Shown here in pieces: positions 1,256 through 41,224 of a stretch of DNA of 64,000 bases. The notes beneath the pieces are model-generated. The model saw only the letters and a list, made by a program, of their open reading frames with translations. It was not told where the DNA came from and searched no databases. The DNA lies in contig CAWCXF010000007.1 in the NCBI GenBank assembly GCA_963799455.1, forward strand, positions 99,221 to 163,220, read 5' to 3'. Every line of letters begins with the position of its first letter. Within the stretch, counting starts at the first letter, position 1. Source of the stretch: an uncultured Alphaproteobacteria bacterium. GTDB taxonomy: Bacteria; Pseudomonadota; Alphaproteobacteria; Rhodobacterales; Rhodobacteraceae. The translations under genes were made by a program, and so were the position numbers.

Positions 1256-1666
1256 CTAGGAAACCTGCTCAACCCCGTGACGCTTGGTCAGGAACACGTA
1301 TGCGAAGAACAGCATGAATACGAAGTCGTTCGCGCCATAGATGGTGTAGAAAACCCCAGCGAAAGCGTCCTGCTCGTAAACCGTTGTCAGTGATTGCGAA
1401 GCTATGAATGAAGTCCACGCAATCACGTAAGCCAGCTTTTCGATCACGAATACCGCGATGAGCCAGCGCACCTGTGCGTAGTTTCGGCTCACGGCGATGT
1501 AGGCCATGCCCCATAGCACGATGCAGACCAGGCCAAACAGACCCATCACACCGGGCTGCGTCTCCATCAGCACGTCATTGGTGAATATGCGCGAACACAC
1601 CAGGACGCCCAAAATGTTGCTGAGGCCGGCGAGAACAAAGCCTCTACCGATATTGGCATCGCTCAC
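1256..1666 (-). CDS. hypothetical integral membrane protein
   Basis: 136-aa ORF with 3-4 hydrophobic helices; no recognisable family. Confidence 0.45.
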   Translation of the reverse strand: MSDANIGRGFVLAGLSNILGVLVCSRIFTNDVLMETQPGVMGLFGLVCIVLWGMAYIAVSRNYAQVRWLIAVFVIEKLAYVIAWTSFIASQSLTTVYEQDAFAGVFYTIYGANDFVFMLFFAYVFLTKRHGVEQVS

Positions 1667-1685
1667 CGCGCAAGCGCCTTACACA

Positions 1686-2918: not shown

Positions 2919-2941
2919 CGATTAACCCCCGAAGCGCACAA

Positions 2942-4090
2942 TCACAGTTTCATCGCATCGATCGCGATGCGGCCATAGACACGACTTAGCGCATCGAGAT
3001 CGGCGATGGCTACAGCCTCGTCACGCTTGTGCATAGTGGCGTTGACCAGCCCGAATTCCACCACCGGGCAAAGCTCGCGAAGGAACCGCGCGTCAGACGT
3101 GCCGCCGCTGGTGGATTGTTCAGGTGTAACCCCGGTTACGGCGGCCACTGCGTCACTGACGACTTGCGTGAATTCGCCCGGCGGGGTCAGGAACGGTTCG
3201 CCCGAGATCACAGGTTCAGCGCGGCAGCCGTGCTTTTGCGCCAATGCGCCGATGGTGTCCGATAACGAGGCACCGGAATGCAGATCATTGAAGCGGACGG
3301 AGATGCGCGCAGTGGCCTTGGCAGGGATCACATTGTGCGCCGGATTGCCCACTTCCAATTCGGTTATTTCCAGATTCGAAGGCTGGAACCAGTCAGTCCC
3401 CTCGTCCAGTTCGAGCGCGTCCAGTTCGGCCAGCAGGCGCACCAGTCGCGGGATTGGGTTATCGGCCAGATGCGGGTAGGCGACATGGCCTTGCGTGCCC
3501 TCGGCATGAAGCCAGATATTGACCGAGCCGCGCCGCCCGATCTTCATCATGTCGCCCATCCGGTTGACGCTGGTCGGCTCTCCTACCAGGCACAGGTCCG
3601 GTATCTCGCCTATCTCGCGCATATGATCGATCAGCGCGCGGGTGCCGTAGAGTGCCGGGCCTTCCTCGTCTCCGGTGATGATAAAGGACAAGGTGCCCGC
3701 CTCGCGCGGGATACCCGCAGCGGCGGCGACCATCGACGCAATGGCGCCCTTCATGTCGACCGCGCCGCGTCCGTAGAGCAGGTCGCCCCTGATCTCAGGT
3801 TCGAATGGCGCGCTGACCCATCCCTCCCCCGGCGGGACGACATCGACGTGCCCGGCAAAGGCGAAATGCCTGGTCCCGTCGGGACCGGGGCGAATGGCAA
3901 AGAGGTTTTCAACCGGGCCATCGGGCGGATCGCCTGCCGTAAAGCGGTACACTGCAAAGCCAAGCGGGGCGAGCAGCGCCTCCATAACATCGAACACCTC
4001 GCCGGTGGCGGGCGTGACGCTTTCGGCTGCGATCAGACGCGTGGCGATCTCAAGGGTCGTTGACGGTTCGGACCGAGACATTGCGTTCAA
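2942..4090 (-). CDS. dapE: succinyl-diaminopimelate desuccinylase
   Basis: M20 peptidase motifs: GHVDVVPPG, ITGDEEGP, GRGAVDMKG. Confidence 0.85.
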   Translation of the reverse strand: MNAMSRSEPSTTLEIATRLIAAESVTPATGEVFDVMEALLAPLGFAVYRFTAGDPPDGPVENLFAIRPGPDGTRHFAFAGHVDVVPPGEGWVSAPFEPEIRGDLLYGRGAVDMKGAIASMVAAAAGIPREAGTLSFIITGDEEGPALYGTRALIDHMREIGEIPDLCLVGEPTSVNRMGDMMKIGRRGSVNIWLHAEGTQGHVAYPHLADNPIPRLVRLLAELDALELDEGTDWFQPSNLEITELEVGNPAHNVIPAKATARISVRFNDLHSGASLSDTIGALAQKHGCRAEPVISGEPFLTPPGEFTQVVSDAVAAVTGVTPEQSTSGGTSDARFLRELCPVVEFGLVNATMHKRDEAVAIADLDALSRVYGRIAIDAMKL

Positions 4091-23881: not shown

Positions 23882-24634
23882 GTGTTCATGTCCGATTTAG
23901 CCGATGCAGTGGGGACTGCCATCGAAGGAGGACTCGTTTCGAGCGCGGTCGAGCGGGAAACAGGCCAAGGCTCTGGCGGCTCCGGCAAGGAACTGAACCG
24001 GGGGCATTTCGATGAGGGAGAGTGCCTGAATTGCGGCGCGTCCCTGGTCGGCAGCCATTGCCATCAGTGCGGCCAAAAGGCGCACCTTCACCGCACAATC
24101 GGCGCTTTCGCCCATGACCTGTTGCACGGCGCGCTGCATCTGGACGGCAAAATGTGGTCCACACTGCCGTTGCTCGCATTCAAACCGGGAAAGCTGACCC
24201 GTCGCTATATCGACGGCGAGCGAGCCAAATTCGTCTCGCCCATGGCGATGTTCTTGTTCTCGATCTTTCTCATGTTTGCCGTCTTTCAGGTCGCCGGCAT
24301 CAGCACACCGACAAATTTGGAGAGAACGACAAAGACCGCGGTAGCGAAGCAAATCCAGTCAGAAATTGCCGAAGTTGAGGAGCGGCGCGAGGCGCTACGC
24401 GCAGAACTGGCCGGCGAAGACCTCGATGATGAGCGTCGGCGCGCGGCTCAGCAGGAACTTGTCGAGATCGAAGAGGAATTGGCCGCTATCGAGACTGCCA
24501 CGCGCAACGTTTCATTCTTCGAGGAATTTCGGACGTCGGAGACCGCTGGATCAGAACCGACCGCGATGTCTACGGATGCGGAATCGACCCTGGCTGGCGC
24601 TGACCAGGTTCCCAGCAGCGAGAATGAGTTCTGA
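23882..24634 (+). CDS. DUF3667-type protein, N-terminal part (zinc ribbon, TM helix, coiled coil)
   Basis: CLNCG...CHQCGQK zinc ribbon plus a single transmembrane helix. Confidence 0.5.
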   Translation: MFMSDLADAVGTAIEGGLVSSAVERETGQGSGGSGKELNRGHFDEGECLNCGASLVGSHCHQCGQKAHLHRTIGAFAHDLLHGALHLDGKMWSTLPLLAFKPGKLTRRYIDGERAKFVSPMAMFLFSIFLMFAVFQVAGISTPTNLERTTKTAVAKQIQSEIAEVEERREALRAELAGEDLDDERRRAAQQELVEIEEELAAIETATRNVSFFEEFRTSETAGSEPTAMSTDAESTLAGADQVPSSENEF

Positions 24635-25136
24635 CGAGGGTGAAACCGGCTCAACCATTCCCATCAGGACGAGCGATGGCGGCAAATATGACGTCACCTT
24701 TGGCGGCTCGCAGTGGGTCGAAGGCGGGATCGATAAATGGCGCGAAAATCCCAGCCTCATGCTCTACAAATTGCAGGCAAATTTTTACAAGTTCAGTTGG
24801 CTATTGATCCCGATATCCATCCCGTTCGTATGGTCGCTGTTCTTGTGGAAGCGGCAGTTTAAAGCCTACGATCACGCGATTTTCGTGACCTATTCGTTGG
24901 GTTTTATCACCCTGCTGACACTCGCGATTGTGGTGGCGACCTTGCTCGGAATGCCAACGGTGATCGTGGTTCTTGCTTCGCTATTCATCCCGCCCCTGCA
25001 CCTGTACAAGCAGTTGCGCGGAACTTACGGTCTGTCGCGATGGAAGGCCTCGTGGCGTCTGCTCGTGCTGACGATCTTCATCATCGTCATACTTGCCATT
25101 TTCAGCTGGCTACTGCTGATGGTTGGAATGTTCTGA
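24613..25136 (+). CDS. DUF3667-type protein, C-terminal polytopic part (possibly the same gene after a frameshift)
   Basis: Overlapping ORF starting at ATG 24613; 3-4 transmembrane helices. Confidence 0.45.
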
Positions 25137-25209: not shown

Positions 25210-25488
25210 CTAGTCGGTGCCGTTTAAAGCGCCGTCACCCTGATCGGGATCGTCGCGCTCGTCAGCATTCAGTTCGGCTTGCAGCTTGTCCGCCCCCGCG
25301 CTCACGCCCTCGGCTGCATCTATAGTACCTTCACGAGCAGCGTTCTCGACGACTTCGAGATTAGCCTCGGCATCGGCAGCGGCACGTTCGGCAACTTCCT
25401 GAGCATTGTCCGCCGTTTCGGCTGAACAGGCAGTCAGGATTGTCAGCGCGGCTAGCGATGCCAATGCGGAAGTTGTCTTGCGGGTCAT
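25210..25488 (-). CDS. small acidic lipoprotein
   Basis: Signal peptide with lipobox LTAC. Confidence 0.4.
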   Translation of the reverse strand: MTRKTTSALASLAALTILTACSAETADNAQEVAERAAADAEANLEVVENAAREGTIDAAEGVSAGADKLQAELNADERDDPDQGDGALNGTD

Positions 25489-25516
25489 CAATATCTCCGT
25501 TCTTGCGAATGCCAGC

Positions 25517-26930
<1,414 letters not shown>

Positions 26931-26934
26931 CGTT

Positions 26935-28035
26935 CGGCGCTTCGGCGGGGTCGAGGGAGTGCACGGAGTGCCCGAGGGCGGGACCGTTGACCTTCATGAA
27001 CGACGAGCCCCAAGCGGTTGGCGACGTACTCCATGAGCGTCGTCTTTCCGTAGCCGGGAGGCGAGATGAGCAACAGCAAACCCATCAAGTCCGTGCGCTT
27101 CTCATTGCCGGCGGCGCCGATCTGCTTGGCCAAGTTGTCCCCCACCAGCGGCAGGTAGACTTCGTTTACGAGGCGGTTGCGCACAAACGCGCTCATCACC
27201 TTCGGGCGAACTCTTCGAGACGGAGCGTTTCACGCGTGCGTGTGAGCAGCTCATGTCGAACGCTTCGGTACGCTTTGTACGCGGGAACTCGTCCACTCTT
27301 GAACCGGCTCAGCCGCGCCGAAATTCATCGAGTCGAATCACGAGTGATTGGTCGGTGATTCGTCCGTGCTGGCCAAGCAGCCCTTCGACCTTGAGGGTGG
27401 TCAGTGCATCGCTCGGTGTGTCTGTCCAGCTTGTCGGTCAAGGAGCAGCGCGGTCGCTTCCGTCGCCGAATGCGCGCGTCGGGCTGCCTCCTCGCCGCCC
27501 TTGCGCACGAACCCGTCGATCCATGCCCGGCACAGTGCCGCCTGCGCGGAGAGTGAGTCCGCCAGAGCTTCCACATCCTCTTCAAACGCGCGACGGCTGC
27601 CCGCGCTCTTAGGGCCGCCAAGAACTCATCCCGGAGCCACACCGCGTCACGGCTGGTGCAGAAGCGCGTGCTTCCTTCCGCCAGCTCTTGCGCGAGATAG
27701 TGCCCCGCAACCTCGGCGTCTTGCGCGCTGAAGTCCAGCGCGTGCTCCGTACGAAACCTGTCGATGCTCTTCCCCACTCTTCGCCGAGCCGAAGCTGCTC
27801 CTTTGCTGCGCCAAACGCCTTTTCAAGACGGCCGAAACTCGCTCCACGCCGCTGCAGCGACTCTCGGTCTTCGAGCCGTGACCAGTAGATCCACGCCAGC
27901 GAACGTGCGCTCGACGCGTACCGGAGAAGCCCGCCCGACTCCCGCGCCAGCAAGAGCCGGTCGAGGATGCGCGCCGCGTCCGCGTCGTGGACGCCGCCCT
28001 CGTAGCCCTCGTCGTAGCGCGCGGCGGCGACCTTG
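26935..28035 (-). pseudogene. 3' region of the giant coiled-coil ATPase gene: protein-like in all three minus frames in turn, includes the P-loop module, cut off at the junction
   Basis: Frame switches among ORFs 27609..27953, 27325..27777, an unlisted frame, and 27199 downward. The last carries [52 protein letters not shown], then [13 protein letters not shown] in yet another frame. Confidence 0.6.
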
Positions 28036-30934
28036 CTACAAGCTTGACGAGCCCACCCTCGCTGCGCTGCGCTCCGCGGAGCGCCGCCATCGAAAGCTCC
28101 GCGTCTGAATCTCCGTCGCCGGACTCCGCATCGTATAGAATCGTCGCCGCCAAGTACTCGGCGCGATAGACGTCTTCGCTCTCCGACACGAGCTGCTGCG
28201 ACCAGAGAGGCTTTGTCGCGGCGAACGCTGCGTCGTCGACCGTCTCGTAGAAGTCCGTTCCCGTCAGGTGAAACGCAAGGTCATCGCCCCGCGGCACCAA
28301 CGCCAAGTCGAGCGCCTGCTCGTTCACGCTGAAGCGATGTGTGCCTAGCTTGATGAGGTTGCCCTCTTCGAAGAGCTCGAGGCGGTCGCGCAAACCACGA
28401 ATGGAGTCGTGGCGGATCGCTTTGAGACGCGCCTCGACATCGTCGGCTTTCACCGAGTCGCCAAGCTCGCGCAAGCTCTCCACGAGCTGCCGCAGCTTCA
28501 TCACCATAGGGTCGGCGGCCAGATACGAGTTCAGTTCATCGGCGCTGGTCATCGTGCGAGAGCGCCGCTCGACGCCGTCGACGATCCGGCCTGCCGCCTT
28601 CATCAGGTTTTCGGCGCGGCGTTGCTGTGCTTCCACCAGGGTTTGACGCTTCGCACTAAACGCGTCGTAGATCTCTTCGCGCTTGGCGGCGATCTCCTCG
28701 AGGAAGTCGTCGAACTCCGAGAAGCGCGCCTCGAGCTCCTCGAGTTGCACCATCAGACGCGCGCGCTCTTCGTCTACGCGGTCCGGCGCCTGGGCCATGG
28801 AGAGAGCGCTCGTGACGCTCTGCGCCAGTAGGCTCAGCTGCGCAGCAAACTCCGCGCCGCCCTCTGTCTTCATCAGCGCGCGACGCTTTTGCGTCAGCGC
28901 CGCGCGGAGCTGGTTCAGCTGCGCGAAGACTTGGCTGATGGTCTCCAGAATCGACGTCCTCGAGGTGGCGTCATCGACCTCAAGCCCTGACACCACTTCG
29001 CTGATGAGCGCTAAGCCTTCGCTGACCTCCTCGGCGCGTTTGATGAGCGGATTGATTTCCGCGACGCGAGTGACTTCCTCCGAAGCACGCAGGCACTCGC
29101 TGAGCTCCTTCGTGATAGGCGCAAACGCGTCATCCCCGAGCAAGAATCGAACGCAGTCCCGGCTGACGCGGTCGAACTGCTCGATGACCTGCTCTTCGCG
29201 AGCCTCCAGCGCCTCGCCGTCGATGTAGCGCGTGTCTTTGAGCGTGATGAGCTGCCCGCGCTGTCGACGGAGCGCGCTCAAGAGCGCCATGTATTCGCTG
29301 GCGGAACGACCACTACTGGCTTCGACCTGCTGCGTCAGCTCGTCGTGGGCAGCGGCGGCTTCCGCGAGGACGGAGGCCGCATGAGAGCGAAGCGCGAGAA
29401 CCTTCTCGTACTCATCGACGACCTGCTCCGCCGTCTGGCGAACGTCGCCGAGAACCTTGAGGAGATCGATCTCGTCGTTACCAAGCCAGTAGTACGCGTC
29501 CATAAAGGACGACACGTTCTCGCTGAGCTCGTCGAAGGTGCGCCGCTCTGGATTCGGCTGCTCGATGAGACGCTTGAGGCTGTACGCCTCCGAGATGCCG
29601 CGAACGAGTTCGGCGTTTCCAACCTTGGCGAGGAACGATCCGTCCGTCGGTGCCGCGGCTGCGTGCTCCGCGCTGAAGAAGGGCGTCCGCCACACCTGCA
29701 TCGGGTGAACCCGCGAGGGTTCATCACTCAGCGCTTTGAAGACGAGCATCTCGCCGTTGTCAAAGATCGAGTAACCGTGGCACTGAATCGGAGCCTGAGA
29801 TTCTTTACGAATCATATTGTAGGGAAGCAGCTCGTAGCGACCTTCGTCTGCTCGGTGAAAGACATAGAGAACGTCTTCGCCGTTGGGCGACTTGATCACT
29901 TGCGTCAACTCCAGGCCTTCACGGGCCGCGTCGAAGATCTTCGATTCGCCGGTCTGAAGGTAGTAGCCCCCGGGGAAGATGATCCCGTGGTCTTCGGGCA
30001 GCTGCCGACACGCTTGCCCGATGGCGTCGATGCGCTGCACCTTGTGTGAGCGCGTGTTGAACACCAGGTAGCGCCACGTTTCCTCGCGGAAAGGACGGAT
30101 CTTGAGGAGGATCAAACCGCCGAGCTGCGCGTAGAAGAACTCCCCGTCGTCGAGGGTTTGGTTTACATCGTCGACGGTCTCGGCATAGACGCCGCGACCC
30201 GTCTCGGTGTTGTTCTCGACCTTGATCGTGAGGTCGCCACCGGTGGTCTCGACAAAGCAGCGGTCAAGAATCGATAGATGCGGGTAGCGGCCAGGAACCT
30301 GGTCGTCTCGCGTCGTCGAGGTCCACTGGAAGTCATAGCGATTCGGCAAGACATCGTCGATGTCGCCACGGCTGTCCATGTACGTAAGCTTGCCATCCGG
30401 GTGTTCCTTCCAGCGAAATACACGGACTTCCTCCGTCGTCGCGCCGGTCTGAAAGACCGCGAGCAAACGCCCATTGACCTTGCGAATCCGAAGCAGTCGC
30501 GTCTGGTCGTAGTAGCGGTAGAGCTCTTGGAAATCCTTTTCGAAAGCTTGGTCGGCCAAAAAGGCGTCGCCGAAGTCGCGAGACAGAGCGCTGAGGTCGT
30601 AGCCGCTCTCCGTTTTGTCGAACTGATGAAGGCTGAACACGTCGGAGACGACGGTTTCCTTCTTCAGTCCAACAAAGACGTTGTAGCCGAAGAGCACGTT
30701 GCCTTGAATGGCGTGGATATCGCGCGGGACACAGTTGTGCTCCGTACGAATCCGCTCGTTTGCTACGACCTCCAGCTCGGTGCCGCCAAAGACCTCATGC
30801 CGCCTCGCGTTGAGGGCTTCGATCTTGGTGGCGAGCTGCTGGCCTTGGGCGCGGAGCCGCGCGTGGATGACTTCATAGTTGCCACCCTCGAGAGGCTCCG
30901 CCGGCGTGATGCTCTTGTCTGCGCTGTCGGCCAT
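28036..30934 (-). CDS. giant uncharacterized protein: N-terminal globular region (~500 aa) plus long coiled coil; upstream part of a coiled-coil/AAA ATPase
   Basis: 1095-aa ORF (27647..30934) is intact to about 28035. Heptad-rich segments such as EELEARFSEFDDFLEEIAAKREE; start ATG lies 3 nt after the flotillin stop. Confidence 0.7.
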
Positions 30935-30937
30935 CGT

Positions 30938-33064
30938 CTACTTCAGGCCTAGCTTTGAGGCTTGCATGGCAAGCTGTTGGAGCTTCGACTTCGTGCCGTC
31001 ATCGGCCCCGCTCATCATCTGCGCCAAGAGCGCGCTGATGCTCAGGTTCTTGATGGCTTCGGAGTCGATGGCGGGGTTGCTGAGAACTTCCACCACGTCG
31101 CTCGGCAGTGACTTCTCGCCGCTGAGATATTCCCCAAGGACAGCTCGAGCCGTCTCGCTGTTGTTGACGAGTTCGTCCGCAGACTGACCAAGAGTGACCG
31201 CCTTCATGAAGCGGTCGAAGAACTCTCCGTCGCCACCGACGATGTTGATCTTGGCGGCGCCCATCGCCTGGGCCATCACGCTGGCCTGGCTCGCGGCGAT
31301 GTGTTGGCGTACCCCGATCTCCTTGAGCTTCACTTCCTTCTCCATCTCGAGTCGGATGCGGAACTCCTCATGCTCGCGGCCTACGCCGTCCAGAGCCTTC
31401 ATCGCGTTGGCCTTCTCGGCGAGGCCGGCGGCCTCCGCGACAAGCTTCTTTTCGATGGTGTTGGCCTCGGCCATGCCGCGCTTCTCGACGGCTTGGGCGT
31501 GGGCTTCTTCCACGCGCGCTTCCGACAGGCCCTGGGCTTCGCGACCCACAGCTTCGGCGTTCATCTTCTCACGGACGACGACGGCGTTCGCCATTCCTTC
31601 CTTCTCCGCCACCGAAGCGGCGGCGTCACGAACGCGGACGGCGGCGAGGCCTTCCTTCTCGATGGCGACGGCGTTGGCTTCTTTGACGCGCACCTGGGCA
31701 AGCCCAGCGGCGGCCTGTTCAGCCTGGGTTCCTTCGGCCTGGCGAATCTTCGCCCGGGCCGACTTGTCGGCGGCTTCCAGCTCAGCGTCGGCCACGGTGA
31801 GCATTTCCTTCGCCTTGAGGCGAGAGACTTGCTCGTTGGCTTCGGCGGCTTTCACAGTCTTCAGGAGAGCTTCGTCGGCGACGCCTTCGGCGTTGATGAC
31901 GGTGGCTTCCTTGTTTCGCTTCGCTTCGGCGAGGAGACGCAGGTCCTTGATGCGCTCTTCTTCCTCGGCGACGGTCTTGTCGACGACGATTCGGCCGCGG
32001 ACCACATCGGCGATCTCTCGCTTCTGCACCTCGACTTCCTTGTTCTTGCTGATGAGCTGAAGCTCCGTCTCGCGCTGGCGGCTGATCTCTTCGATCATGC
32101 GTGCCTTCTCCACGCGCTCCGTCTCCACGGCGATCTCTCGCTCGCGGTTCTTCTGGGCGATGGCGACGCCACGTTGCTTCGCCTCGTCGGCGACGAGCAC
32201 CTCTTCTTCGTGCTTGGCGCGCAGCAGCATGGTTTGCTTATTCTCTTGGTCTCGAACACGCATTGCTTCGTTCTCTTCGCGGGACTGAGCCACGGAGATC
32301 TCGCGTTGCTTCTTCGCCTCGGCGGCGGCGCGTCGTTGGTCGAACTGGAAGATCGCTTCGTCCGCGGCCAGGTCTTGGCTGCCCATCTCCATGCGCTCTT
32401 TCTGGCGGAGCTCGTTGGTCTCCACCTTGGAGGCTGCGGTGATCTCGGTAATCTTGCGAATGCCGTGGGCATCAAGGATGTTCTCGGGGTCCAGGTGCTC
32501 AAGAGGCGTCTGCTCGAGGTAGTCGATGGCCGCATCGTTCAAGGTGTAGCCGTCCAGGTCATCGCCGATAACCTCGACGATGTTCTTTCGGAAGTCCGCG
32601 CGCTTCGTGTAGAGGTCGGCGAAGTCGAACTGCTTTCCAACGGTCTTCAACGCTTCGCTGAACTTGGCGTTGAAGAGGTGGTCGATGGCGGTGATGTCCG
32701 ACGCGCGAACGCAGCCCAAGAGACGCGCGACTTTGAGCACGTCTTCCGGTTCTTTGTTCACCTGGACGAAGAAGGTCACGCGAATGTCCGCGCGAATGTT
32801 GTCGCGACAGATGAGGCCGTCCTTGCCGCGACGATCGATATCGATGGTCTTGACGGAGATGTCCATGACCTCCGCGCGATGAAGAACGGGGTACACCACC
32901 ATGCCGGTGAAGGTGACCTTCGGTTCGCCGCTCATGGTGTTGACGATGAGCGCTTTGCCTTGGTCCACCTTTCGGTAGAAGCGGGCGATCATCGTCAGGA
33001 CGCCCACGATGAGCACGAATGCGATTCCTACGCCGATAAGCCACGGTACTGCTTGTTCAAACAT
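30938..33064 (-). CDS. flotillin-family SPFH protein (YqiK-like)
   Basis: N-terminal transmembrane helix, SPFH/band 7 domain (KALIVN...VKTIDIDRRG) and a very long E/A/K/R-rich coiled coil. Start ATG at 33064 preceded by AAGGA. Confidence 0.85.
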   Translation of the reverse strand: MFEQAVPWLIGVGIAFVLIVGVLTMIARFYRKVDQGKALIVNTMSGEPKVTFTGMVVYPVLHRAEVMDISVKTIDIDRRGKDGLICRDNIRADIRVTFFVQVNKEPEDVLKVARLLGCVRASDITAIDHLFNAKFSEALKTVGKQFDFADLYTKRADFRKNIVEVIGDDLDGYTLNDAAIDYLEQTPLEHLDPENILDAHGIRKITEITAASKVETNELRQKERMEMGSQDLAADEAIFQFDQRRAAAEAKKQREISVAQSREENEAMRVRDQENKQTMLLRAKHEEEVLVADEAKQRGVAIAQKNREREIAVETERVEKARMIEEISRQRETELQLISKNKEVEVQKREIADVVRGRIVVDKTVAEEEERIKDLRLLAEAKRNKEATVINAEGVADEALLKTVKAAEANEQVSRLKAKEMLTVADAELEAADKSARAKIRQAEGTQAEQAAAGLAQVRVKEANAVAIEKEGLAAVRVRDAAASVAEKEGMANAVVVREKMNAEAVGREAQGLSEARVEEAHAQAVEKRGMAEANTIEKKLVAEAAGLAEKANAMKALDGVGREHEEFRIRLEMEKEVKLKEIGVRQHIAASQASVMAQAMGAAKINIVGGDGEFFDRFMKAVTLGQSADELVNNSETARAVLGEYLSGEKSLPSDVVEVLSNPAIDSEAIKNLSISALLAQMMSGADDGTKSKLQQLAMQASKLGLK

Positions 33065-33267
33065 TGATTTCCTTCTTCTCTCTACTGCGCAAGAGCGCGA
33101 ACCGGACCTGCGGACATCGCCGGCCTCCTTCCCAAACCCTGGTCGCCGAACAAAATCCGACGCGCCGAAGTGGACCATGGATGGTGCACCTTGTGGGGTT
33201 TGAGTTGGCCCAAGGTGTGTTCCCCCCGATAAACATCTACGGGGATTGAATGGTCTCAAATCCCGCT

Positions 33268-33969
33268 TCAGCGTTCGGCTTCGAGGAGCGCGTCCATAAG
33301 CTCCACTTCGTAGAGATCGGCCTCGGCGTCGTAGTCCAAAAGCAGCACTTTGGCGTTCTTGATCAGCGCCGCGTCACTGCAGCGAACGCGCAGGAGGCTT
33401 CCGGAACCGTCGTCGAGAGTCGCCTGTCCTCGGCCGCCGGCGTCCGCATGTATCTTGACGCGCGCGACCTTGCCGACGAGCACCCGCTTGCTGGGGGCGT
33501 CATTGGATGCGAACACGCGCCCAAGGGGCGTGCTGGCAACTGCCGCCATGGGCCACGCGATGGCGGTGGACAGCCCGAGGACAGCGACGTTGCCAACGAG
33601 CTCAGGCCCTGGGATGAGGCCCGAGTAGCCAGAGAGTCCGTAGCAGACCGCCCAGCCAAAGAAGAAAAGCAGGCTCAATCCTACGGTGAGTGGCGCCTTT
33701 CGGAGACTCAAGATGCTGGAGAGCGAGGACGCGCCTCCAATCCCGATGTCGTCCCCGACCTCGCCCGCGTCGCCCGCGTCCATCTCGCCGACGTCGCCGC
33801 CGACGTCTCCGGCAATGTCCATGTCGATATCACCCACGTCGCCATCGACGCCAAAGTCCAAGTCGAGCGCGCCGAACATGACAAGCATCCAGTAGCAGAG
33901 CGAAAACAGGACACCGACGGTGAAAACAAGTGTCGGAAAGGCGAAGGCGGTGGCGACGAACTGCTCCAT
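33268..33969 (-). CDS. NfeD/YqiJ-like membrane protein, partner of flotillin (start may be 34080)
   Basis: Transmembrane helices, an acidic DxD-rich segment, and a C-terminal beta-rich OB-fold-like tail (VGKVARVKIHADAGGRGQATLDDGSGSLLRVRC). Confidence 0.6.
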   Translation of the reverse strand: MEQFVATAFAFPTLVFTVGVLFSLCYWMLVMFGALDLDFGVDGDVGDIDMDIAGDVGGDVGEMDAGDAGEVGDDIGIGGASSLSSILSLRKAPLTVGLSLLFFFGWAVCYGLSGYSGLIPGPELVGNVAVLGLSTAIAWPMAAVASTPLGRVFASNDAPSKRVLVGKVARVKIHADAGGRGQATLDDGSGSLLRVRCSDAALIKNAKVLLLDYDAEADLYEVELMDALLEAER

Positions 33970-34160
33970 GTCGGAGCAAAGTGGCACGACCGGTCCAAAG
34001 TAGATAGTGGGATAGGCAGAGGACGAATCCCGTGGGGAGGACTCCGCACCGCCGAGCGCTTTTGCGACTGGCACATTCAAGTCAGGAGGGGGGCGAGCTC
34101 GCGGGCGAGGGCCGCGAGCACAGGGTCAAAACTTGTCTGTCGGGGCACTCGTGCGGCGCA

Positions 34161-36542
34161 CTAGAAGCTCTCGCCGAGGGCGATGTGGATCGCGCCGGGG
34201 AATCCGAAGAAGGTATCTTGGACCCCTTCGTTGTCGCCGGTCATGCGTGGATCATCACCGAAGACTTGCAGGCTGGGTGGCGCCCAGCCGACGTCGAGGC
34301 GGATGGCCCCGACGATGGTGTAATAGCGGAGGCCCATGCCGAAGCTGAACTGCGGGACGTTGAACCGCCACTCTTCGGCGGACACGTCGCCGGCGTCGCC
34401 AAACGCCACGATGCCGAAGCTCTCGGTGACGCGGAGTCGAAGCTCCGCGCTCGCGAGCCACTTGCGGTTGCCGCCGCTCCGTCCGTCTCCGAGGCGTCCG
34501 GGCAAGTAGCCGCGTACGTCCGTCGAGCCGCCGCCGTAGAAGCGCTGGTCGCGTGGGCCGAGCAGTGTGCTCTCTTCGTCGAGGCCTTCGTCTGGGTCGG
34601 AGATGAGCATTGCGCCGAGGACGAAACGCCCGGCGAGGGTCAGTCGTCTCCCGAAAGGCACGTACGCGCGGATGTCCGGGACGACGCGTATGTAGTCGAA
34701 CGTAGACGGCAGAAAGTAGCCGCCCTCCTGGAGGTCCACCTGAAAAAAGAACCCCTTCGTCGGACGCACGTTGTCGTCGCGGAAATCGAAGCGGAGAATC
34801 TGCTGAAGGTACGTGATGTGGTAGTTGCTTGGAGGTGCGGAGTCGTCTTCGCGGAGTTCACCGTCCGGGACGTGGTAGTAAGAGAAGCGCGGCAGCCCGA
34901 TGGCAGCGAAGATCTTTCTCTCTAGAAAGAAGCGCTCAAGTCCCAGGCCCACGTCGACGCGATGGCGAAAGAAGATGTCGTACGGGTCGCGGCCGAAGTC
35001 GTGCTGTGCATCGATGGTGAACGTAAGATTGGGCTCCAAGAATCCGGGCTGTCGAAACTCGGCGCTGATGAGATTGCCAAGGCGCGGCTCGTCCACCGTC
35101 GGGAAGCGGTCACCGAAGATCAGACGTGGCGTCTCGCGTAGAATCAGCCGGCGAAGACCGCCGAGCATGTTGCGGTTCTCGTAGGTCACCGAAGCGTGCA
35201 CGTCCCACTGGTCGACGCTGTTGACCTCGCCGAATCGCCCGCGATTCTCGACACCGCTGAGGATGCCCAGGCCCAGGGAGTAGCGGTGATGGCGCGCTGG
35301 GGTGACGCGGATGCGAACGTCCACGACCTCTCCTTCGCCGGTGAGGATGGGTTCGGCGACGACGCCGGAGAATCCGCCGAGGCCATAGACGAGGCGCTGC
35401 CCTTCGCGGATTTGCGAGCGGTCGTAGCGCATGCCCGGCTCCAGCTGACTGGCCGCGATGACGACATCTTTGGGGATGTTGTCTGGGCCCTCCACTTGGA
35501 TCTCTCCGTACACGCACACTGGACCTGGATTGAGCTCAAGCACGATGTGAGCTTCCCGCCCGGGTCGGTCGATTCGTACGCGTCCGTCGACGCGCGCCCG
35601 CGCATGGCCGGCTCGGAACATGATGCCTTCGAGGACGTCCTTCGATTTGTCGTAGCGCTGCTCGTCCCAACGGTCTCCGACGTTGAGTTTGAGCCCTTCG
35701 CGCATCTGCCTGGCCATGCGCTCGGACATCTCCTCGATGCCGACGATCTCCAGGGTCCTCACAAGGGTGGGCTCTCCTTCCTCGATCACGAATCGGACGT
35801 CGACGGCGCAGCCTTCGTCGTCGTCGATGCGCTCACAGGGGGCTTCGTCGACTTGGGGTGTTCCGTTTCCGTTTCCGTTTCCGTTTCGGTTTCCGTTTCC
35901 GGTTTCGGTTTCGGTTTCGGTTTCGGTTTCGGTTTCGGTTTGGGTTTCGGTTTCGGTTTCGGTTTCGGTTTGGGTTTGGGTTTGGGTTTGGGTTTGGGTT
36001 TGGGTTTCGGTTTCGGTTTCGGCGTGATCGTGGCCGTGATCGTCGTCCGAACTCTCACCCGCTTCGTCATCGCCGGCGTTCTCCTCCGCCTCCTCGCTGT
36101 CGTCGTCCTCGCTGACGTCCGGGAGCAAGTCCTCGTCCATCGCGCTCGGTGGCGTTGTCTGCACTTCCACGACGCGCGCGCCATGATACCCGCGCGCCGC
36201 GTACCAGCGTTCGATGCGCTCGACGTCTTGTTCCACCGTGATGCGGTCGAAGTAAGGCCAGTCGGACCAAGGCCAGGTCCAGAGGTTGAGCCGTCGAACG
36301 TCTCCTTCAAACGGCGGCTCTCCGCACGATGTGCTTTCGTCGAGGTCCAAGTTAATTTGGACGCGGTCACGTGCCTGCGTGGCGAGGCAGACTCGGATCG
36401 CGTCCCGGTCGAAGGACTCCACTCCGTCGAACTCCAGAGTTCGGACACCGTAGCGGGTCGGCGGAATGCTCGCGCAACCCGCGAGGACGACTAGCAGCCA
36501 TCCCCATCTCAACGTTCGACCGCAACTGCTTAGGGCTCCCAT
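34161..36542 (-). CDS. tamA: TamA-like Omp85-family outer-membrane assembly protein with a low-complexity insert
   Basis: Signal/lipobox, POTRA-like repeats, C-terminal surface-antigen beta-barrel ending in F. Adjacent to tamB with a 13-nt overlap. Confidence 0.75.
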   Translation of the reverse strand: MGALSSCGRTLRWGWLLVVLAGCASIPPTRYGVRTLEFDGVESFDRDAIRVCLATQARDRVQINLDLDESTSCGEPPFEGDVRRLNLWTWPWSDWPYFDRITVEQDVERIERWYAARGYHGARVVEVQTTPPSAMDEDLLPDVSEDDDSEEAEENAGDDEAGESSDDDHGHDHAETETETQTQTQTQTQTQTETETETETQTETETETETETETGNGNRNGNGNGNGTPQVDEAPCERIDDDEGCAVDVRFVIEEGEPTLVRTLEIVGIEEMSERMARQMREGLKLNVGDRWDEQRYDKSKDVLEGIMFRAGHARARVDGRVRIDRPGREAHIVLELNPGPVCVYGEIQVEGPDNIPKDVVIAASQLEPGMRYDRSQIREGQRLVYGLGGFSGVVAEPILTGEGEVVDVRIRVTPARHHRYSLGLGILSGVENRGRFGEVNSVDQWDVHASVTYENRNMLGGLRRLILRETPRLIFGDRFPTVDEPRLGNLISAEFRQPGFLEPNLTFTIDAQHDFGRDPYDIFFRHRVDVGLGLERFFLERKIFAAIGLPRFSYYHVPDGELREDDSAPPSNYHITYLQQILRFDFRDDNVRPTKGFFFQVDLQEGGYFLPSTFDYIRVVPDIRAYVPFGRRLTLAGRFVLGAMLISDPDEGLDEESTLLGPRDQRFYGGGSTDVRGYLPGRLGDGRSGGNRKWLASAELRLRVTESFGIVAFGDAGDVSAEEWRFNVPQFSFGMGLRYYTIVGAIRLDVGWAPPSLQVFGDDPRMTGDNEGVQDTFFGFPGAIHIALGESF
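35860..36022. repeat. hexanucleotide microsatellite (GTTTCG/GTTTGG/GTTTCC)n inside tamA, encoding (ET)n(QT)n and (GN)n on the minus strand
   Basis: Seen directly: about 27 near-perfect hexamer units. Confidence 0.9.
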
Positions 36543-39500
36543 CGAAGCTCCAGTCCCCAGGTGTTTCCTTGCTGGTAGCGGGTGTTCAGAAGCAGGCTGT
36601 AGGGGAAGAGGAGCTCAAGCTCCACGCCGCCGGCGAATGAGCCGCCGGCGCCCTCGTTGCTTTGACCGCCGACGTAGCCTTCGATGTGCGCGCCGATGAC
36701 GACGTCGCTGAGAAAATCGGGGATCAACCGGTCGGCCTGAATCGCTGCGCGAAGTCGGGCTCCCGTCGCATTGGACTCGATCCCGAATACCGGAATGTAC
36801 TCGCCGAGTTCGCGTCGGGTGAGACTGCTGAGGAGACCGGCGGTGAGGCCTGAGACGAACCCAAGCACCTGGTCGCGCGCTCCCGCGCTGTCATTGCCGC
36901 CGCCGCCGCCGCCGATCAGCAAGGCCAAGATCTCCGCCTCCGTTTCAGCGCTTGGGTCAGACGAAGAGAAGTTGAGCTCCAGCGAGAAGAGGTCCCCGCT
37001 AAGTTGCACGGTGACGGTCTGCTGGTTCGCCAGCTCGTGCACGGCGGTGATGTCGAGGCGTGGGTTGATGCTTCGTCCACCCGAAAAACGGATCTCACTT
37101 CGCTCAAATTCGAACTGCTTGCCAACAATCGAAAGAAAGCCGCGGCGGATGTCGACGGTGCCCTCAAGCCGTACGCCAGAGCTGTCGATAATAGCGATGA
37201 GGTCGGGCTCCACCTGGACGGAAAAGTCATCACGACGCACATAAAACGGATTGGAGGTTAGGTTAATGCGGGTCTCGCTGTCGTCCGCCTCGTCGGCTTC
37301 GTTGGAGACCGTCAACGTTCCTGCGAGGCCAGAGAAACCATCATCGTCTTCGTAGACGACGTCAGGGTGCTGGGAGAGCGATTGGACCTGACGGCCCACG
37401 TCTGGAGAAATCTGGATCGCTGCGTCTCGCAGCCCGACGTCGAACTCACTGACGGGGTCGCCAAACTCACCGGTGATGTCGATCTTCGTATCGAGCGTTG
37501 CGTACACGATACCCTCTAGGCGGAAGGGGAAGTCGTCGAGGACCGCCGTGGCGTCGACGCGACCGAGTTCCCATCCGTCCATTCCCACGTGCCCATTGAC
37601 CAGGATAGTTCCGTCGCGGTCCCGGAAGCGGACGTCGTGCAGGTGAAGTCGGTCATCGTCGAGGGCGACGCGTCCGTTGAGACTCTCGACACGCAGCAGG
37701 GGTTCGCGCAGCGTAAAGCCCACCTCTTCCAGTTCCACGCCACCGCGCACATGGACTTGGCCGGCGTCGTCGCCTCTGGCGCTCACTTCGCCGCTGAGGT
37801 GTCCGCGTGGGGAACCGATGAGGGCGACGGGCGCGGCGAGAATGGCCAGCGGCGCGTGGTTGAAGTTCGCGCGGCCTTGCCAGCCGGCGGTGTCGGGAAG
37901 CGGTAGATGAAGTTCGTCGTCCATGGCCATGGGGACTGAGCCTTCGGCGACGAAGAGCTCGGTCTCGCCGGCCAGGCGCAAAGACACCGTCGCGCGGCTG
38001 GCTGTAGCGTGCGCTTCGATGTTGAAGTCCGCTGGCGGAGTGTGGTCCCGGGCGCTCGTCGATTGAAGTCCAGCGATGGTCCCGCGTAGATCCACCATCG
38101 GCTGGTCGCCAAGGATATCTTGGAGCTGCGCCTCGAGGTTTACTTCCCCAGCGACTTCTGCGCAGACGATGGGGATTCCGTTCATCGGGAGCTCTTGGAT
38201 CGAAAGGTCGGCGTTGATCGCGGGCAGTCGTTCCGGCATCTGAACGACCCAGCTGTCGAGGGGAAGGGGCATGGTGGCGCTGAGCGTGGCGCGCTCTGCG
38301 CCGCCAGTTCGGACGCGACTGTCGAGGTTGAAGGTGCCGTCGTTGAGGCGGCCCTCAAGGGTCATGCGCGTCGCACTGATCGAACAAGAGTCGCCGTCGT
38401 GCTCGCCCGCCACAGGTGGATAGGACACCACCGCCGACACCGTCCCTTCGGCTCCCCCGAGGCTTGAGTTCTGCCCTTGTCCTTGGAAGTGCGCGTTCAG
38501 CCCGACTCGGCCTTCCTGCTCTTCGAGCATCGCGATAGGAAAGTCGCGAAGGCTGCGTTCGGGGATGAGAAGGTCCACCGACCAAGGGTGCTGCAGGATC
38601 TGGCGCGCGTTTTGTTCCCACGCCATTCGGTCGAAGGTGAGCGCGACTCGAACATCGAGCATCGGGGCGGATGCTTCTTTGAGGACAAGACTGCCGAGGA
38701 GATTTCCGTCATCGAGCTCCGATTGAAACTCGACGCGTGGAACCATGAGTTCGAGATCTGGATAGCCGAAGTCATTGACAGCGAGGAAAAGCTCGAAGGC
38801 ACGCGGGTCGATGTATGACCCGGACGAATGCAGCTCCACCCCGAGCGTGCCCGACAGCGCGGGCAGTGATTCGGGGCCGAGGATGACGTTCAGGCTCTCC
38901 CTGAGTGGCTCGAGCTTCGTGCCGCTGAGCTGCACGTGCAAGTCGAGGGGGGCGCGCTGCCAGTCGCCGCTTAGGTCGGCTGAGGGCGCGGTACCCATGA
39001 GCTTGATTTCGACTCTTCCCACGACTTCGCCGAGTGCCTCGACGAGGAGCTCAAGTTCCGCCTTTCCTTCGTTTTGGTTGACGTTTGCGTGCCATTGAAG
39101 CGTCGCGAGTTCCAAGCCTTGGTACTTCACAGAGGTCAGGGACCCCTCCGAGTGAAGGGCGGGCCGGGCGATGGATCCATGGAACTCGCCCGTGGCTGCA
39201 ACGGTCCCTTCGATGGGAACTTCTAAGAGGTCCCCGAGCGGTTCGAGGTTCGCGTGATCGACGTCGAAGGAAAAGTCCGAGCGTCCGCGAAATGAGACGC
39301 GGCCGCGCATCGTTGCGCCGAGCACGTTCGGCGCACGGACGGCGAGGGCGCCGACGGAGAAGCTGTTTTCGCCAAGGGCGAAGCGCTGGATGTCGATGGT
39401 GACGGGCTGCGGAAAAAGCCCCCGCGCGCGAACGTTGCCCGTGGCCTGGACGCCGTCTTCGATGCCAAGCTGGGTGTCCACGTCGACGACAAGAGCCCGA

Positions 39501-41224
39501 TCGACGAACTGCGCGGGGCCCTCGACGCGGCCTCGAATCCGGTAAGGCCCGTCGCCCGCGGCGCTGAGATCGACGCGCGTCAGATCGATGCCGTAGAGCG
39601 TCGCTTGCCCCGTACGAACGTGCGCATCCAGGCGTGGGGCGCTGACGGGTCCGCTGGCGCTCGCGCGGACCGTCGCTTCGGCGACGCGGACGTCTTGCAT
39701 TCGAAAGCCGCGGACGTTGACGTCGGCGCGTGCGTCGAGGACGTCGTCCCGCAGAGAGACCTCCGCTTCGATTCGCGCACGTCCCCCGACGCCCGGGAGG
39801 AGCATCGCGAGCGAGGGTTGCGCAGAGAGCCTCGGTAGGTCGGCATCGACGTTCAGCGAGAGGTCACCGTCGAAGCCGTATCGTCCGCGGATGTCCATGT
39901 GTCCACCTTCGGAGAGCGCAGGCAAATCCAGCCGGCTCAGAACGACCGCGTCTTCGGTGATCGTCGCGTCGGCGATGAGTCGCTCGACTTCCCACGTGTC
40001 GTAGGCGATGTCCTCGCCGCGGACCTGAATGTCCCAGCCCGACGCGGATTCAGCGGCGCTGACGTTCAGGTCAAACTGCACGGCGCCAGCGACGCCGAGG
40101 TCGGCGGCCAAAGCCTCGGCCAGGTTAAGGCCAGGGGTTCGAAGCGCGAGGTTCGCCTGCAGCGGTCCCGAAAGATCGACGGACCCATCAAGCGCGAGTT
40201 CGCCCCCAGGCGGCCGGAGCGACCCTTCGAAGTTGAGGGCATCGAAGGGGCTATATTCCTCCGTGGGCGCGTCGCTCTCCGCCGAACGGACGTCTAGCCC
40301 GATCTCCGTGGGACCGCCGAGGAGGTCTTGGCCGGTAAACGGCGTGAGCATCGCGTTGGTCAGAACGCCCTCGACCCGAGCATCGAGAGCCCCGAGGGTG
40401 TCGTTCACCCACGGCAGCGACGCGCTCACATCGAGGTGGCCGTCTTCCGTGGCGAGGCGCAAAGACGCGTCCATCGAGCCGCCATCACGCAGCGCCGCAT
40501 CATAGGTGAGCCCGCTGAGAGCCACGTAGGGCTGTCCGTTTAGAACGATGCTGGCGCTCTCGCGTTCCTGAACCGCGGCCTCGGCGTCGCGCGGGTTTCC
40601 GTTCTGTGTGCCGTGGATTTCGACGGACTCTCCTTCGACCTCGATGCGAAGGTCGAGGTCAAGGTCGCTCACCTGCACGTCGATCCCAGGAACGTCGTGG
40701 ACCGATGCGTCGCTCACCGCGCCGGTCACCCTCATGACGAACGTCGACGGCGCCGGGTCCGGCGGTGATGGTTCCGCGGGCAAGAACGCTTGGGAGATCC
40801 TAAGTCCGCCCTCGGCGTCGGTGGAAAGCGAAATTCGGGGCGATTGAACGACCACATCGCTCAGCAAGAGCTCTCCGCCGATCAGCGGGAAAATCGCCGC
40901 GGAGGCGCTCGCTCTTTCGACGTCGACCACGTGCACGCCCTCCGCGTCCGTGAGCTCGATGGACGCAAGTTCCGCCGTCACGGACATGAGGCGGACGTCG
41001 ATGTCGACGCACTGAAAGTCCATGGAGCCGGCGATGGCGTCGTTGCCGAGATCACGGCCCAAGGAGCAGATGACCTCGCGAGCGGGGTTGCTGTTCAGGT
41101 GGATCAGCACGCTCGTGACGAGGCAAAAGATCGCCAACAGAAGCCCCAGGAGCGTGCGCAGAACACCCTTCAGCACACGTACGCCGATAACGGACGCCTT
41201 CGACTTGTCTTGTTGGGTGCTCAC
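36530..41224 (-). CDS. tamB: translocation and assembly module protein TamB (AsmA-like, DUF490 C-terminus)
   Basis: 1564 aa, N-terminal transmembrane anchor, long beta-rich repetitive body, and the characteristic C-terminal DUF490 region. Confidence 0.8.
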   Translation of the reverse strand: MSTQQDKSKASVIGVRVLKGVLRTLLGLLLAIFCLVTSVLIHLNSNPAREVICSLGRDLGNDAIAGSMDFQCVDIDVRLMSVTAELASIELTDAEGVHVVDVERASASAAIFPLIGGELLLSDVVVQSPRISLSTDAEGGLRISQAFLPAEPSPPDPAPSTFVMRVTGAVSDASVHDVPGIDVQVSDLDLDLRIEVEGESVEIHGTQNGNPRDAEAAVQERESASIVLNGQPYVALSGLTYDAALRDGGSMDASLRLATEDGHLDVSASLPWVNDTLGALDARVEGVLTNAMLTPFTGQDLLGGPTEIGLDVRSAESDAPTEEYSPFDALNFEGSLRPPGGELALDGSVDLSGPLQANLALRTPGLNLAEALAADLGVAGAVQFDLNVSAAESASGWDIQVRGEDIAYDTWEVERLIADATITEDAVVLSRLDLPALSEGGHMDIRGRYGFDGDLSLNVDADLPRLSAQPSLAMLLPGVGGRARIEAEVSLRDDVLDARADVNVRGFRMQDVRVAEATVRASASGPVSAPRLDAHVRTGQATLYGIDLTRVDLSAAGDGPYRIRGRVEGPAQFVDRALVVDVDTQLGIEDGVQATGNVRARGLFPQPVTIDIQRFALGENSFSVGALAVRAPNVLGATMRGRVSFRGRSDFSFDVDHANLEPLGDLLEVPIEGTVAATGEFHGSIARPALHSEGSLTSVKYQGLELATLQWHANVNQNEGKAELELLVEALGEVVGRVEIKLMGTAPSADLSGDWQRAPLDLHVQLSGTKLEPLRESLNVILGPESLPALSGTLGVELHSSGSYIDPRAFELFLAVNDFGYPDLELMVPRVEFQSELDDGNLLGSLVLKEASAPMLDVRVALTFDRMAWEQNARQILQHPWSVDLLIPERSLRDFPIAMLEEQEGRVGLNAHFQGQGQNSSLGGAEGTVSAVVSYPPVAGEHDGDSCSISATRMTLEGRLNDGTFNLDSRVRTGGAERATLSATMPLPLDSWVVQMPERLPAINADLSIQELPMNGIPIVCAEVAGEVNLEAQLQDILGDQPMVDLRGTIAGLQSTSARDHTPPADFNIEAHATASRATVSLRLAGETELFVAEGSVPMAMDDELHLPLPDTAGWQGRANFNHAPLAILAAPVALIGSPRGHLSGEVSARGDDAGQVHVRGGVELEEVGFTLREPLLRVESLNGRVALDDDRLHLHDVRFRDRDGTILVNGHVGMDGWELGRVDATAVLDDFPFRLEGIVYATLDTKIDITGEFGDPVSEFDVGLRDAAIQISPDVGRQVQSLSQHPDVVYEDDDGFSGLAGTLTVSNEADEADDSETRINLTSNPFYVRRDDFSVQVEPDLIAIIDSSGVRLEGTVDIRRGFLSIVGKQFEFERSEIRFSGGRSINPRLDITAVHELANQQTVTVQLSGDLFSLELNFSSSDPSAETEAEILALLIGGGGGGNDSAGARDQVLGFVSGLTAGLLSSLTRRELGEYIPVFGIESNATGARLRAAIQADRLIPDFLSDVVIGAHIEGYVGGQSNEGAGGSFAGGVELELLFPYSLLLNTRYQQGNTWGLELRWEP

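Follow-up and report, generated by a model that had tools for sequence, protein, structure and literature searches.

The role of bacterial flotillins is still debated, and these proteins are mostly treated as passive scaffolds that work together with an NfeD partner. The locus analyzed here raises the question of what a giant ATPase encoded immediately after a flotillin gene could be, and to which system it belongs. The locus is found in a 64,000-nt stretch of contig CAWCXF010000007.1 (the window, meaning the whole stretch), where three head-to-tail, co-directional genes of the minus strand encode a YqiJ-like small membrane protein, a YqiK-type flotillin and the giant ATPase, in this order. 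An earlier note, made from the sequence of the window, had proposed that these genes represent an undescribed system, possibly a defence-type machine. In this work we conclude that the locus is an ordinary member of a cassette already present in the work of Ravi et al. (mSystems 2024, PMC11237479), namely the Polyangiales copy of its PspA-less or "abbreviated" form; that the giant gene was very probably damaged by misassembly; and, more tentatively, that the cassette may act in the remodelling of membrane scaffolds. For these three elements taken jointly we estimate a probability of about 0.55, and the identity of the cassette with its conserved linkage is, on its own, close to certain.

The cassette and its conservation

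A close relative of the locus, L001, was used as the reference for comparisons at the base level. Reading of the open reading frames (ORFs) bore out the three packed genes. The first one (33268..33972, minus strand) encodes a YqiJ/NfeD-like protein of 234 amino acids (aa) with three hydrophobic segments, predicted to be transmembrane, and a beta-rich C-terminal domain; the mechanical ORF reaches a TTG at 34080, and the ATG at 33972 was picked from the consensus of 34 orthologues. The second gene (30938..33067, minus strand, ATG at 33067) encodes a flotillin of the SPFH type that includes an N-terminal transmembrane helix, the SPFH domain and a long helical region rich in Ala and Glu. The third gene, also on the minus strand, starts with the ATG at 30934 and encodes the giant ATPase; an intact 5' part (28039..30934, codons 1 to approximately 965) covers an N-terminal helix, a propeller, a rod and a small beta domain, and is followed by a damaged 3' part (26903..28038). 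Approximately 200 nt separate the YqiJ-like gene from the flotillin gene, and only 3 nt (30935-30937) lie between the stop codon of the flotillin gene and the start of the giant gene. This spacing and the length of the flotillin, 709 aa, are exactly those given in the earlier note.

This arrangement corresponds to operons reported by Ravi et al. (2024; bioRxiv 2020), in which a CesT/Tir-PspA pair is accompanied by three further genes encoding a band-7/flotillin protein, a beta-propeller AAA+ ATPase and a YqiJ/YuaF protein with three transmembrane segments, and sometimes by a PLD/HKD hydrolase. These authors named the PspA-less variants "abbreviated" operons and proposed that the system participates in membrane dynamics of the PspA/ESCRT-III type; their treatment occupies one paragraph and consists of genomic inference, with no experiments. 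Links between PspA, band 7 and NfeD were also reported for Acidobacteriota by Popp et al. (2022), where the ATPase is not mentioned, and it is not mentioned either in the Pseudomonas aeruginosa SPFH paper or in Hinderhofer 2009. Literature searches on YqiJ and on an operon with flotillin, propeller and AAA+ components returned no other description of the cassette.

To evaluate the conservation of the trio, one genome per GTDB species was surveyed, which gave at least 598 loci from at least 598 species. The best 80 loci, with 10-kb flanks, together with L001 gave a set of 81 loci, 26 from Myxococcota, 25 from Actinomycetota, 27 from Gammaproteobacteria and 3 from other groups; Acidobacteriota are represented. 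A flotillin homologue is present in 78 of the 81 loci, and a YqiJ-like gene is found upstream of the flotillin gene in 73; the 3 loci where no flotillin homologue was found have less than 100 bp of upstream DNA. Of the 78 loci for which upstream DNA is available, 77, belonging to four phyla, have the giant gene directly after the flotillin gene, with the order YqiJ-like, flotillin and giant ATPase on one strand. The proposal that the trio is a unit is upheld by these results, and as judged from gene order the linkage appears to be obligatory. The sole exception is L016 (Myxococcales bacterium 68-20), where the flotillin gene (1299-3590) is placed 6.4 kb upstream of the giant gene (9953), which suggests an insertion between the two genes. 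In Actinomycetota the gap between the flotillin gene and the giant gene, the latter taken from the start of its longest ORF, has a median of -4 nt, and in 22 of 24 loci it does not exceed 30 nt; these short or overlapping gaps suggest that both genes are translationally coupled.

An all-against-all clustering of the flanking ORFs revealed no further universally conserved neighbour besides the trio. Nonetheless, a PspA context recurs in Gammaproteobacteria: genes for DUF2170/YjfI (CesT/Tir-like) and PspA/IM30 are found just upstream of the cassette in 15 of the 81 loci, and of the families represented in 139 immediate neighbours, PspA_IM30 is the most frequent. In the same class, genes for rhomboid proteins were found in 9 loci and for PLD in 8, always downstream of the giant gene. 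The megaplasmid pQBR103 of Pseudomonas fluorescens SBW25 carries a yjfI-yjfJ(pspA)-...-yjfC block followed by the cassette, and a Hymenobacter plasmid carries a gene annotated as "molecular chaperone Tir", pspA and a DUF1449 (YqiJ) gene, and then the cassette. No homologue of PspA or YjfI was found anywhere in the window. On the plasmid of Hymenobacter sp. DG25B (L083), the Tir-like/PspA/YqiJ/flotillin/ATPase block is preceded by a divergently oriented gene for a LexA-family regulator (2577-3362), and this gene alone hints at a connection with the SOS response.

These neighbourhoods bear on the idea of a defence system against phages or plasmids, in which the flotillin would sense a perturbation of the membrane by infection and the giant NTPase, joined in some loci by PLD, would serve as an effector or abortive-infection switch. 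Several features agree with this idea: the cassette is patchy within genera (for instance, only some Pseudomonas carry it), it is borne on megaplasmids such as pQBR103 and appears in 13 records of the plasmid collection, the PLD-family gene that follows it in 8 loci matches the DrmC model of PADLOC, and a few immediate neighbours match MkoB/C, mad3/8 and AriA, with 2-3 members each. However, the three proteins of the cassette gave no match at E<=0.01 to the 5,027 models of PADLOC-DB v2, no homologue was detected in 50,697 phage records, and among the 139 immediate neighbours the defence families have 3 members at most, the recurrent ones being generic matches to PLD or ATPase models. The neighbours that recur are PspA, YjfI and rhomboid, with no recurring defence gene, and no context of defence islands was found; besides, the conservation of the giant protein described below is unusually high for a defence system. 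A role in defence is in consequence considered improbable.

Architecture of the encoded proteins

Sequence and profile searches of the PDB with the flotillin and YqiJ-like families gave no match, and for this reason homology was established with YqiJ and YqiK of Escherichia coli. The window flotillin aligns with YqiK by BLASTP (E 6e-29, 26% identity over approximately 450 aa), and the comparison of the flotillin family profile with YqiK gave 99.9% in hhalign; for the YqiJ-like family profile against YqiJ, the hhalign probability is 90.7% (E 1.3e-6). Neither window protein has a Pfam or NCBIfam match even at E=10, which for the flotillin includes Band_7 (PF01145); this family is reached by 7 of 34 flotillin orthologues (best E 5e-11), and none of the YqiJ-like orthologues has a Pfam match. 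Probable membership of the flotillin in the SPFH/Band 7 family follows from transitive homology and from the alignment with YqiK. Its predicted transmembrane segment, the only one, comprises residues 2-32.

The giant protein matches PF12458/DUF3686 (E 1.9e-197, well outside what chance would give) and PF25472/DUF7902 (E 3.7e-26) and has more than 5,599 homologues, of which full-length ones of 1700-2000 aa carry AAA/AAA_5 domains. Intact relatives of the closest group have 1767-1773 aa, and those of other groups 1600-2000 aa; they share the same order of elements, that is, an N-terminal helix, the beta-propeller (DUF3686), a helical rod (DUF7902), a single AAA+ module and a helical tail; approximately 1250 residues of propeller and rod precede the AAA+ module. 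Conservation is high, with a mean column identity of 54-57% over approximately 1770 aa across phyla (57% in an alignment of 20 members), and the matches to the propeller region form just 758 clusters at 50% identity among 1.84 billion representatives. No transmembrane segment is predicted.

Residues 1-967 of the window protein were modelled with AlphaFold2, and the mean predicted local distance difference test value (pLDDT) was 83.6. The model contains a helix (residues 19-49), a beta domain of approximately 27 strands (residues 55-416; 29687..30772, minus strand), a stretch of long helices of some 430 residues and, after it, a small beta domain (residues 860-898). The DUF7902 segment (residues 602-685; 28880..29131, minus strand) lies within the helical region, which spans residues 422-854 approximately. 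According to Foldseek, the beta domain resembles PDB entries for Sec12 (E 1.4e-7), a prolyl-oligopeptidase propeller, paraoxonase and WD40 proteins, and the protein is also paired, with very low template modelling (TM) scores, with giants that combine propellers and helices, such as ROD, IFT-A and a chain of the nuclear pore complex. The earlier note had predicted a globular N-terminal region of about 500 aa followed by a coiled coil of several hundred residues; this outline is broadly right, and two corrections arise from the model: the globular region is a predicted beta-propeller, and the coiled coil is modelled as back-folded helices that form a rod and have spectrin/plakin-like matches.

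In full-length relatives a single AAA/AAA_5 domain is found at residues 1290-1415 approximately. The window retains the Walker A region (27005..27076, minus strand), a direct reading of which shows the GxxGxGK[ST] motif, and the sequence GYGKTT is invariant in 20 members of the family. The possibility that this P-loop belongs to a separate gene was discarded, given that all the full-length relatives carry it within the giant protein itself (residues 1290-1312 of the relative P0002, for example); the C-terminal Walker A module postulated for the giant protein is therefore confirmed. The earlier note had named beforehand two outcomes that would speak against its view, a giant gene usually away from flotillin genes and an independent P-loop gene, and the loci display neither of them. 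The relatives also have an invariant Walker B, LYLDD, with Asp-Asp instead of Asp-Glu (residues 1359-1363 of P0002), in a region that is absent from the window, as well as the invariant sequences MAGNPYTE (candidate sensor 1) and NRAD (candidate arginine finger), both assigned by position alone. The 622 residues at the C-terminus of P0002 were also modelled, with moderate quality (pLDDT 68.7), and all the Foldseek matches listed for this model are AAA+ proteins, in agreement with an AAA+ alpha/beta core and lid: the best one is NorQ, of the MoxR class (E 3e-4), followed by RuvB and by MCM, and ClpA/B are listed as well; these structural matches are weak, with TM-scores of 0.39 or lower.

In the databases the protein bears the NCBI name "DNA repair ATPase", and the Pfam text for DUF3686 reads "ATPase involved in DNA repair". 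If this were its function, the giant protein would work on DNA in the manner of SMC/RecN or RuvB, and its linkage to the flotillin would be incidental. The weak sequence and structural matches of the AAA+ core with RuvB, and the LexA-family regulator upstream of the Hymenobacter plasmid copy, would be in line with this interpretation. Nevertheless, the protein showed no DNA-binding domain, no nuclease domain and no domain specific to helicases, the RuvB matches correspond to the generic AAA+ core and have the same strength as those with NorQ and p97, and a nearly universal linkage to two membrane proteins is unexpected for a DNA repair enzyme. The literature searched contains nothing on DUF3686 or PF12458, nor any "DNA repair ATPase" paired with a flotillin, and the name thus appears to have no experimental basis; we found no support for it in this family, and a function in DNA repair is the least probable of all the explanations weighed in this work.

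A probable chimeric junction truncates the giant gene

The earlier note had ascribed to the giant gene at least 1,300 aa of coding sequence, and no continuous ORF of such length exists. The frame that opens at 30934 has 1095 codons, from which only the first 967 are authentic, and the last 130 or so are out-of-frame noise. Reading of the three frames and the alignment with L001 revealed 8 single-base indels from 28038 to 27002; with respect to L001 there are deletions at 28038, 27767, 27611, 27322 and 27209, and insertions at 27437, 27417 and 27002. Once these are repaired, the gene encodes 1342 aa and homology is lost at position 26899 approximately. Its damaged part accounts for the linker that precedes the AAA+ domain and for the first 55 residues, approximately, of this domain; compared with relatives of 1767-1773 aa, the product falls short by some 430 residues at its C-terminus, and most of the AAA+ domain is lost with them.

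The end of the homology coincides with a change in the origin of the DNA. By blastn, homology with L001 spans the window from 41047 down to 26899 and ends there; the gene of L001 goes on for another 1275 nt. Below this point lies the 3' three-quarters of an ftsH gene (25517..26902, minus strand), outside the cassette, which encodes the AAA domain, the lid and the M41 peptidase, lacks the first 193 codons approximately and matches positions 182-598 of TIGR01241 (E 1.2e-218). The tblastn match of the FtsH protein P0123 begins at 26911, and the true match starts at Q194, with its codon at 26900-26902 approximately. The junction was thus located at 26897..26903 from blastn, tblastn and the switch in tetranucleotide composition, and a few bases of microhomology may be present in it. 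The ftsH fragment is free of frameshifts and its product is 92-95% identical to FtsH of Erythrobacter/Qipengyuania (652-654 aa), whereas the giant gene and its neighbours show 86-87% protein identity with proteins from Polyangiales (Myxococcota) metagenome-assembled genomes, including P0001-P0004. The tetranucleotide correlation is 0.95-0.97 inside each side and 0.82 across sides; 4-kb blocks to the left of 24 kb correlate at 0.95-0.97 with the left reference and at 0.75-0.80 with the right one, and to the right of 28 kb the pattern is reversed. Because tetranucleotide signature, homology and taxonomy all switch at approximately 26899, the window is, on this compositional and homology evidence, an inter-phylum chimera with an Erythrobacteraceae-like left side (1-26899) and a Polyangiales-like right side (26900-64000). 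For proteins of either side, the recorded contig has one and the same length, 1,741,513 bp; therefore, the join sits in the deposited assembly and is not a windowing artefact, and the 1.74-Mb contig itself is chimeric and deserves to be flagged. The frameshifts, the chimeric truncation and the unrelated ftsH gene, which lies just below the point where its description began, had all been missed in the earlier note.

All 8 indels are at 1.1 kb or less from the junction and none is found in the other 2.9 kb of the giant gene; with uniform placement the chance of this clustering is approximately (1.14/4.03)^8 = 4e-5. The repaired part is 76-91% identical to the relatives, which are 82-93% identical among themselves over the same segments. 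A decaying pseudogene was rejected on two grounds, the clustering of the indels at the junction and the lack of a marked excess of substitutions. In our view the sequence very probably reflects a misassembly, with errors of the indel type at a poorly supported join, and not a natural pseudogene. A natural event would require that a Polyangiales-like genome gained Erythrobacter-like DNA, 27 kb of it or more, or that the transfer went in the opposite direction, so that the giant gene was cut and its remnant is now decaying. The presence of the join in the deposited contig and the possible microhomology are compatible with such an event. Against it, both genes are broken in the middle of a domain, including ftsH, which is normally essential; the left 26.9 kb retains an undiluted foreign tetranucleotide signature, and the FtsH fragment is free of frameshifts at 92-95% identity to Erythrobacter proteins. 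In addition, the confinement of the indels to the vicinity of the junction would be a rare coincidence, and the amino-acid divergence of the repaired part is only a few points beyond that of the relatives, like the intact part. A natural origin is hence very improbable, even more so than a defence role for the cassette.

The proximity of ftsH and the flotillin gene could mislead, since SPFH proteins and FtsH are known partners. A biological pairing was rejected here: the ftsH fragment is foreign DNA from across the junction, and its adjacency is the product of the misjoin.

Other features were observed on both sides of the junction. On the Erythrobacter-like side, two overlapping plus-strand ORFs (23882-24634 and 24366-25136) appear to encode the N-terminal half, with a CxxC...CxxC zinc ribbon, and the C-terminal half, with several transmembrane segments, of one DUF3667-like membrane protein; a frameshift near 24.4-24.6 kb seems to separate the two halves, a sign that more indel errors may exist to the left of the junction. 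An ORF of the minus strand (25210-25554, 114 aa) slightly overlaps the end of the ftsH fragment and encodes a predicted lipoprotein-like product, rich in Ala, Glu and Asp past a signal-like segment. On the other side, TamA/Omp85-like (34161-36542) and TamB-like (36530-41224) genes are placed directly upstream of the cassette, on the same minus strand, and this synteny is common to the window and L001. The TamA-like protein of the window has 793 aa versus 680 aa in L001, the difference being made by a low-complexity insert (TETETQTQTQ... and GNGNRNGNGNG). A promoter scan detected none, and terminators were no more abundant than in shuffled sequence.

Possible function and relation to known systems

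In the mechanism that we propose, the flotillin, anchored by its N-terminal helix, and its YqiJ-like partner would form an SPFH oligomer at the inner membrane, on its cytoplasmic side. Through its propeller and its rod, the giant ATPase would dock either on the flotillin assembly or on PspA polymers recruited there and, as an AAA+ oligomer, would drive with ATP the assembly, remodelling or disassembly of membrane scaffolds during envelope stress, the presumed trigger of the system. This handling of scaffolds would be similar to the way in which Vps4 services ESCRT-III. The Vps4 system is a working analogy, which shares with the cassette the notion of an AAA+ protein that remodels membrane-bound polymers of the PspA/ESCRT-III superfamily, and PspA is a neighbour in 15 loci. 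We favour this mechanism tentatively, at slightly below even odds.

Several observations weigh against the mechanism. Its steps are drawn from domains and neighbours, and no experiment on any member of the cassette was found in the literature. A linked PspA is absent in the window, in the 26 loci from Myxococcota and in the 25 from Actinomycetota, and hence PspA need not be the client. Unlike Vps4, the giant ATPase has no visible MIT-like domain, and NorQ and RuvB, not ATPases of the classical clade, are the structures nearest to its AAA+ core, by a weak margin. Finally, the Asp-Asp Walker B may imply a slow or regulated hydrolysis.

Some of these observations lead to a different proposal, in which the giant ATPase would be a MoxR-like chaperone or extractase that acts directly on the assembly of flotillin and YqiJ or on clients among the membrane proteins; PspA would not be involved, and its link in Gammaproteobacteria would be a secondary addition specific to this lineage. 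The trio is invariant even though a linked PspA is missing from the window and from all the loci of Myxococcota and Actinomycetota, and the core of the ATPase is nearest to NorQ, of the MoxR class, and matches AAA_5 of Pfam. On the other hand, a PspA encoded elsewhere in the genome could be the client, as Ravi et al. suggest (PMC11237479), and the structural matches offer weak grounds for placing the ATPase in the MoxR class. A partner with a VWA domain is typical of MoxR systems. No such partner is present among the conserved neighbours of the cassette, and the size and the N-terminal architecture of the giant ATPase are very different from those of NorQ and RavA. This direct service by a MoxR-like protein is rather unlikely. 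We assign a similarly low likelihood to a more specific scheme, also independent of PspA, in which the giant protein would be a dedicated remodeller of flotillin assemblies that grips the flotillin/YqiJ cage with its propeller and spectrin-like rod, while the AAA+ ring opens, closes or recycles it at the expense of ATP. If this scheme were true, the protein would be the first defined enzymatic partner of bacterial flotillins, and bacteria would possess a membrane-coat-like machine built of a propeller and a helical rod.

Beyond the choice among these mechanisms, an ATPase of approximately 1770 aa that is tied to a YqiK-type flotillin in hundreds of species provides a testable handle on the energy-dependent membrane biology of flotillin and PspA. 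The survey includes tractable carriers, i.e. P. fluorescens SBW25 with plasmid pQBR103, Myxococcus, Corallococcus, Streptomyces, Proteus mirabilis and Xenorhabdus.

FtsH-HflK/C is the famous pair of SPFH and AAA+ proteins, in which an AAA+ protease resides in an SPFH cage. It shares with the cassette the concept of an SPFH scaffold that works with an AAA+ machine at the inner membrane; in contrast, the giant ATPase has neither a transmembrane segment nor a protease domain. The ftsH fragment of the window differs as well, given that it is devoid of the transmembrane region and comes from an Erythrobacteraceae, whereas the flotillin is Polyangiales-like. A closer relationship is found with yqiJ-yqiK of E. 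coli, which are homologous to the first two genes of the cassette and have the same order; nonetheless, in E. coli K-12 there is no third gene (yqiK is followed by sibD/ibsD), the window flotillin is approximately 150 aa longer than YqiK, and neither window protein reaches the Pfam thresholds.

The closest counterpart is the cassette of Ravi et al., with which the window shares a band-7 flotillin with a transmembrane segment, a YqiJ-type protein with three such segments and a propeller AAA+ ATPase, all encoded by adjacent and co-directional genes; the optional PLD gene is also seen in the gammaproteobacterial loci of our survey. In contrast to the full form, the window has no CesT/Tir-PspA pair and its cassette is located downstream of TamB/TamA-like genes, and its copy of the ATPase gene is truncated and frameshifted by assembly error. 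The idea of the cassette is therefore not new, as it was advanced by genomic inference in 2020 and 2024, and the window contributes one more copy, in this case a damaged one, and the exposure of an assembly chimera. To the description of Ravi et al. the present analysis adds a quantitative survey, structure models and the invariant LDD of the Walker B motif.

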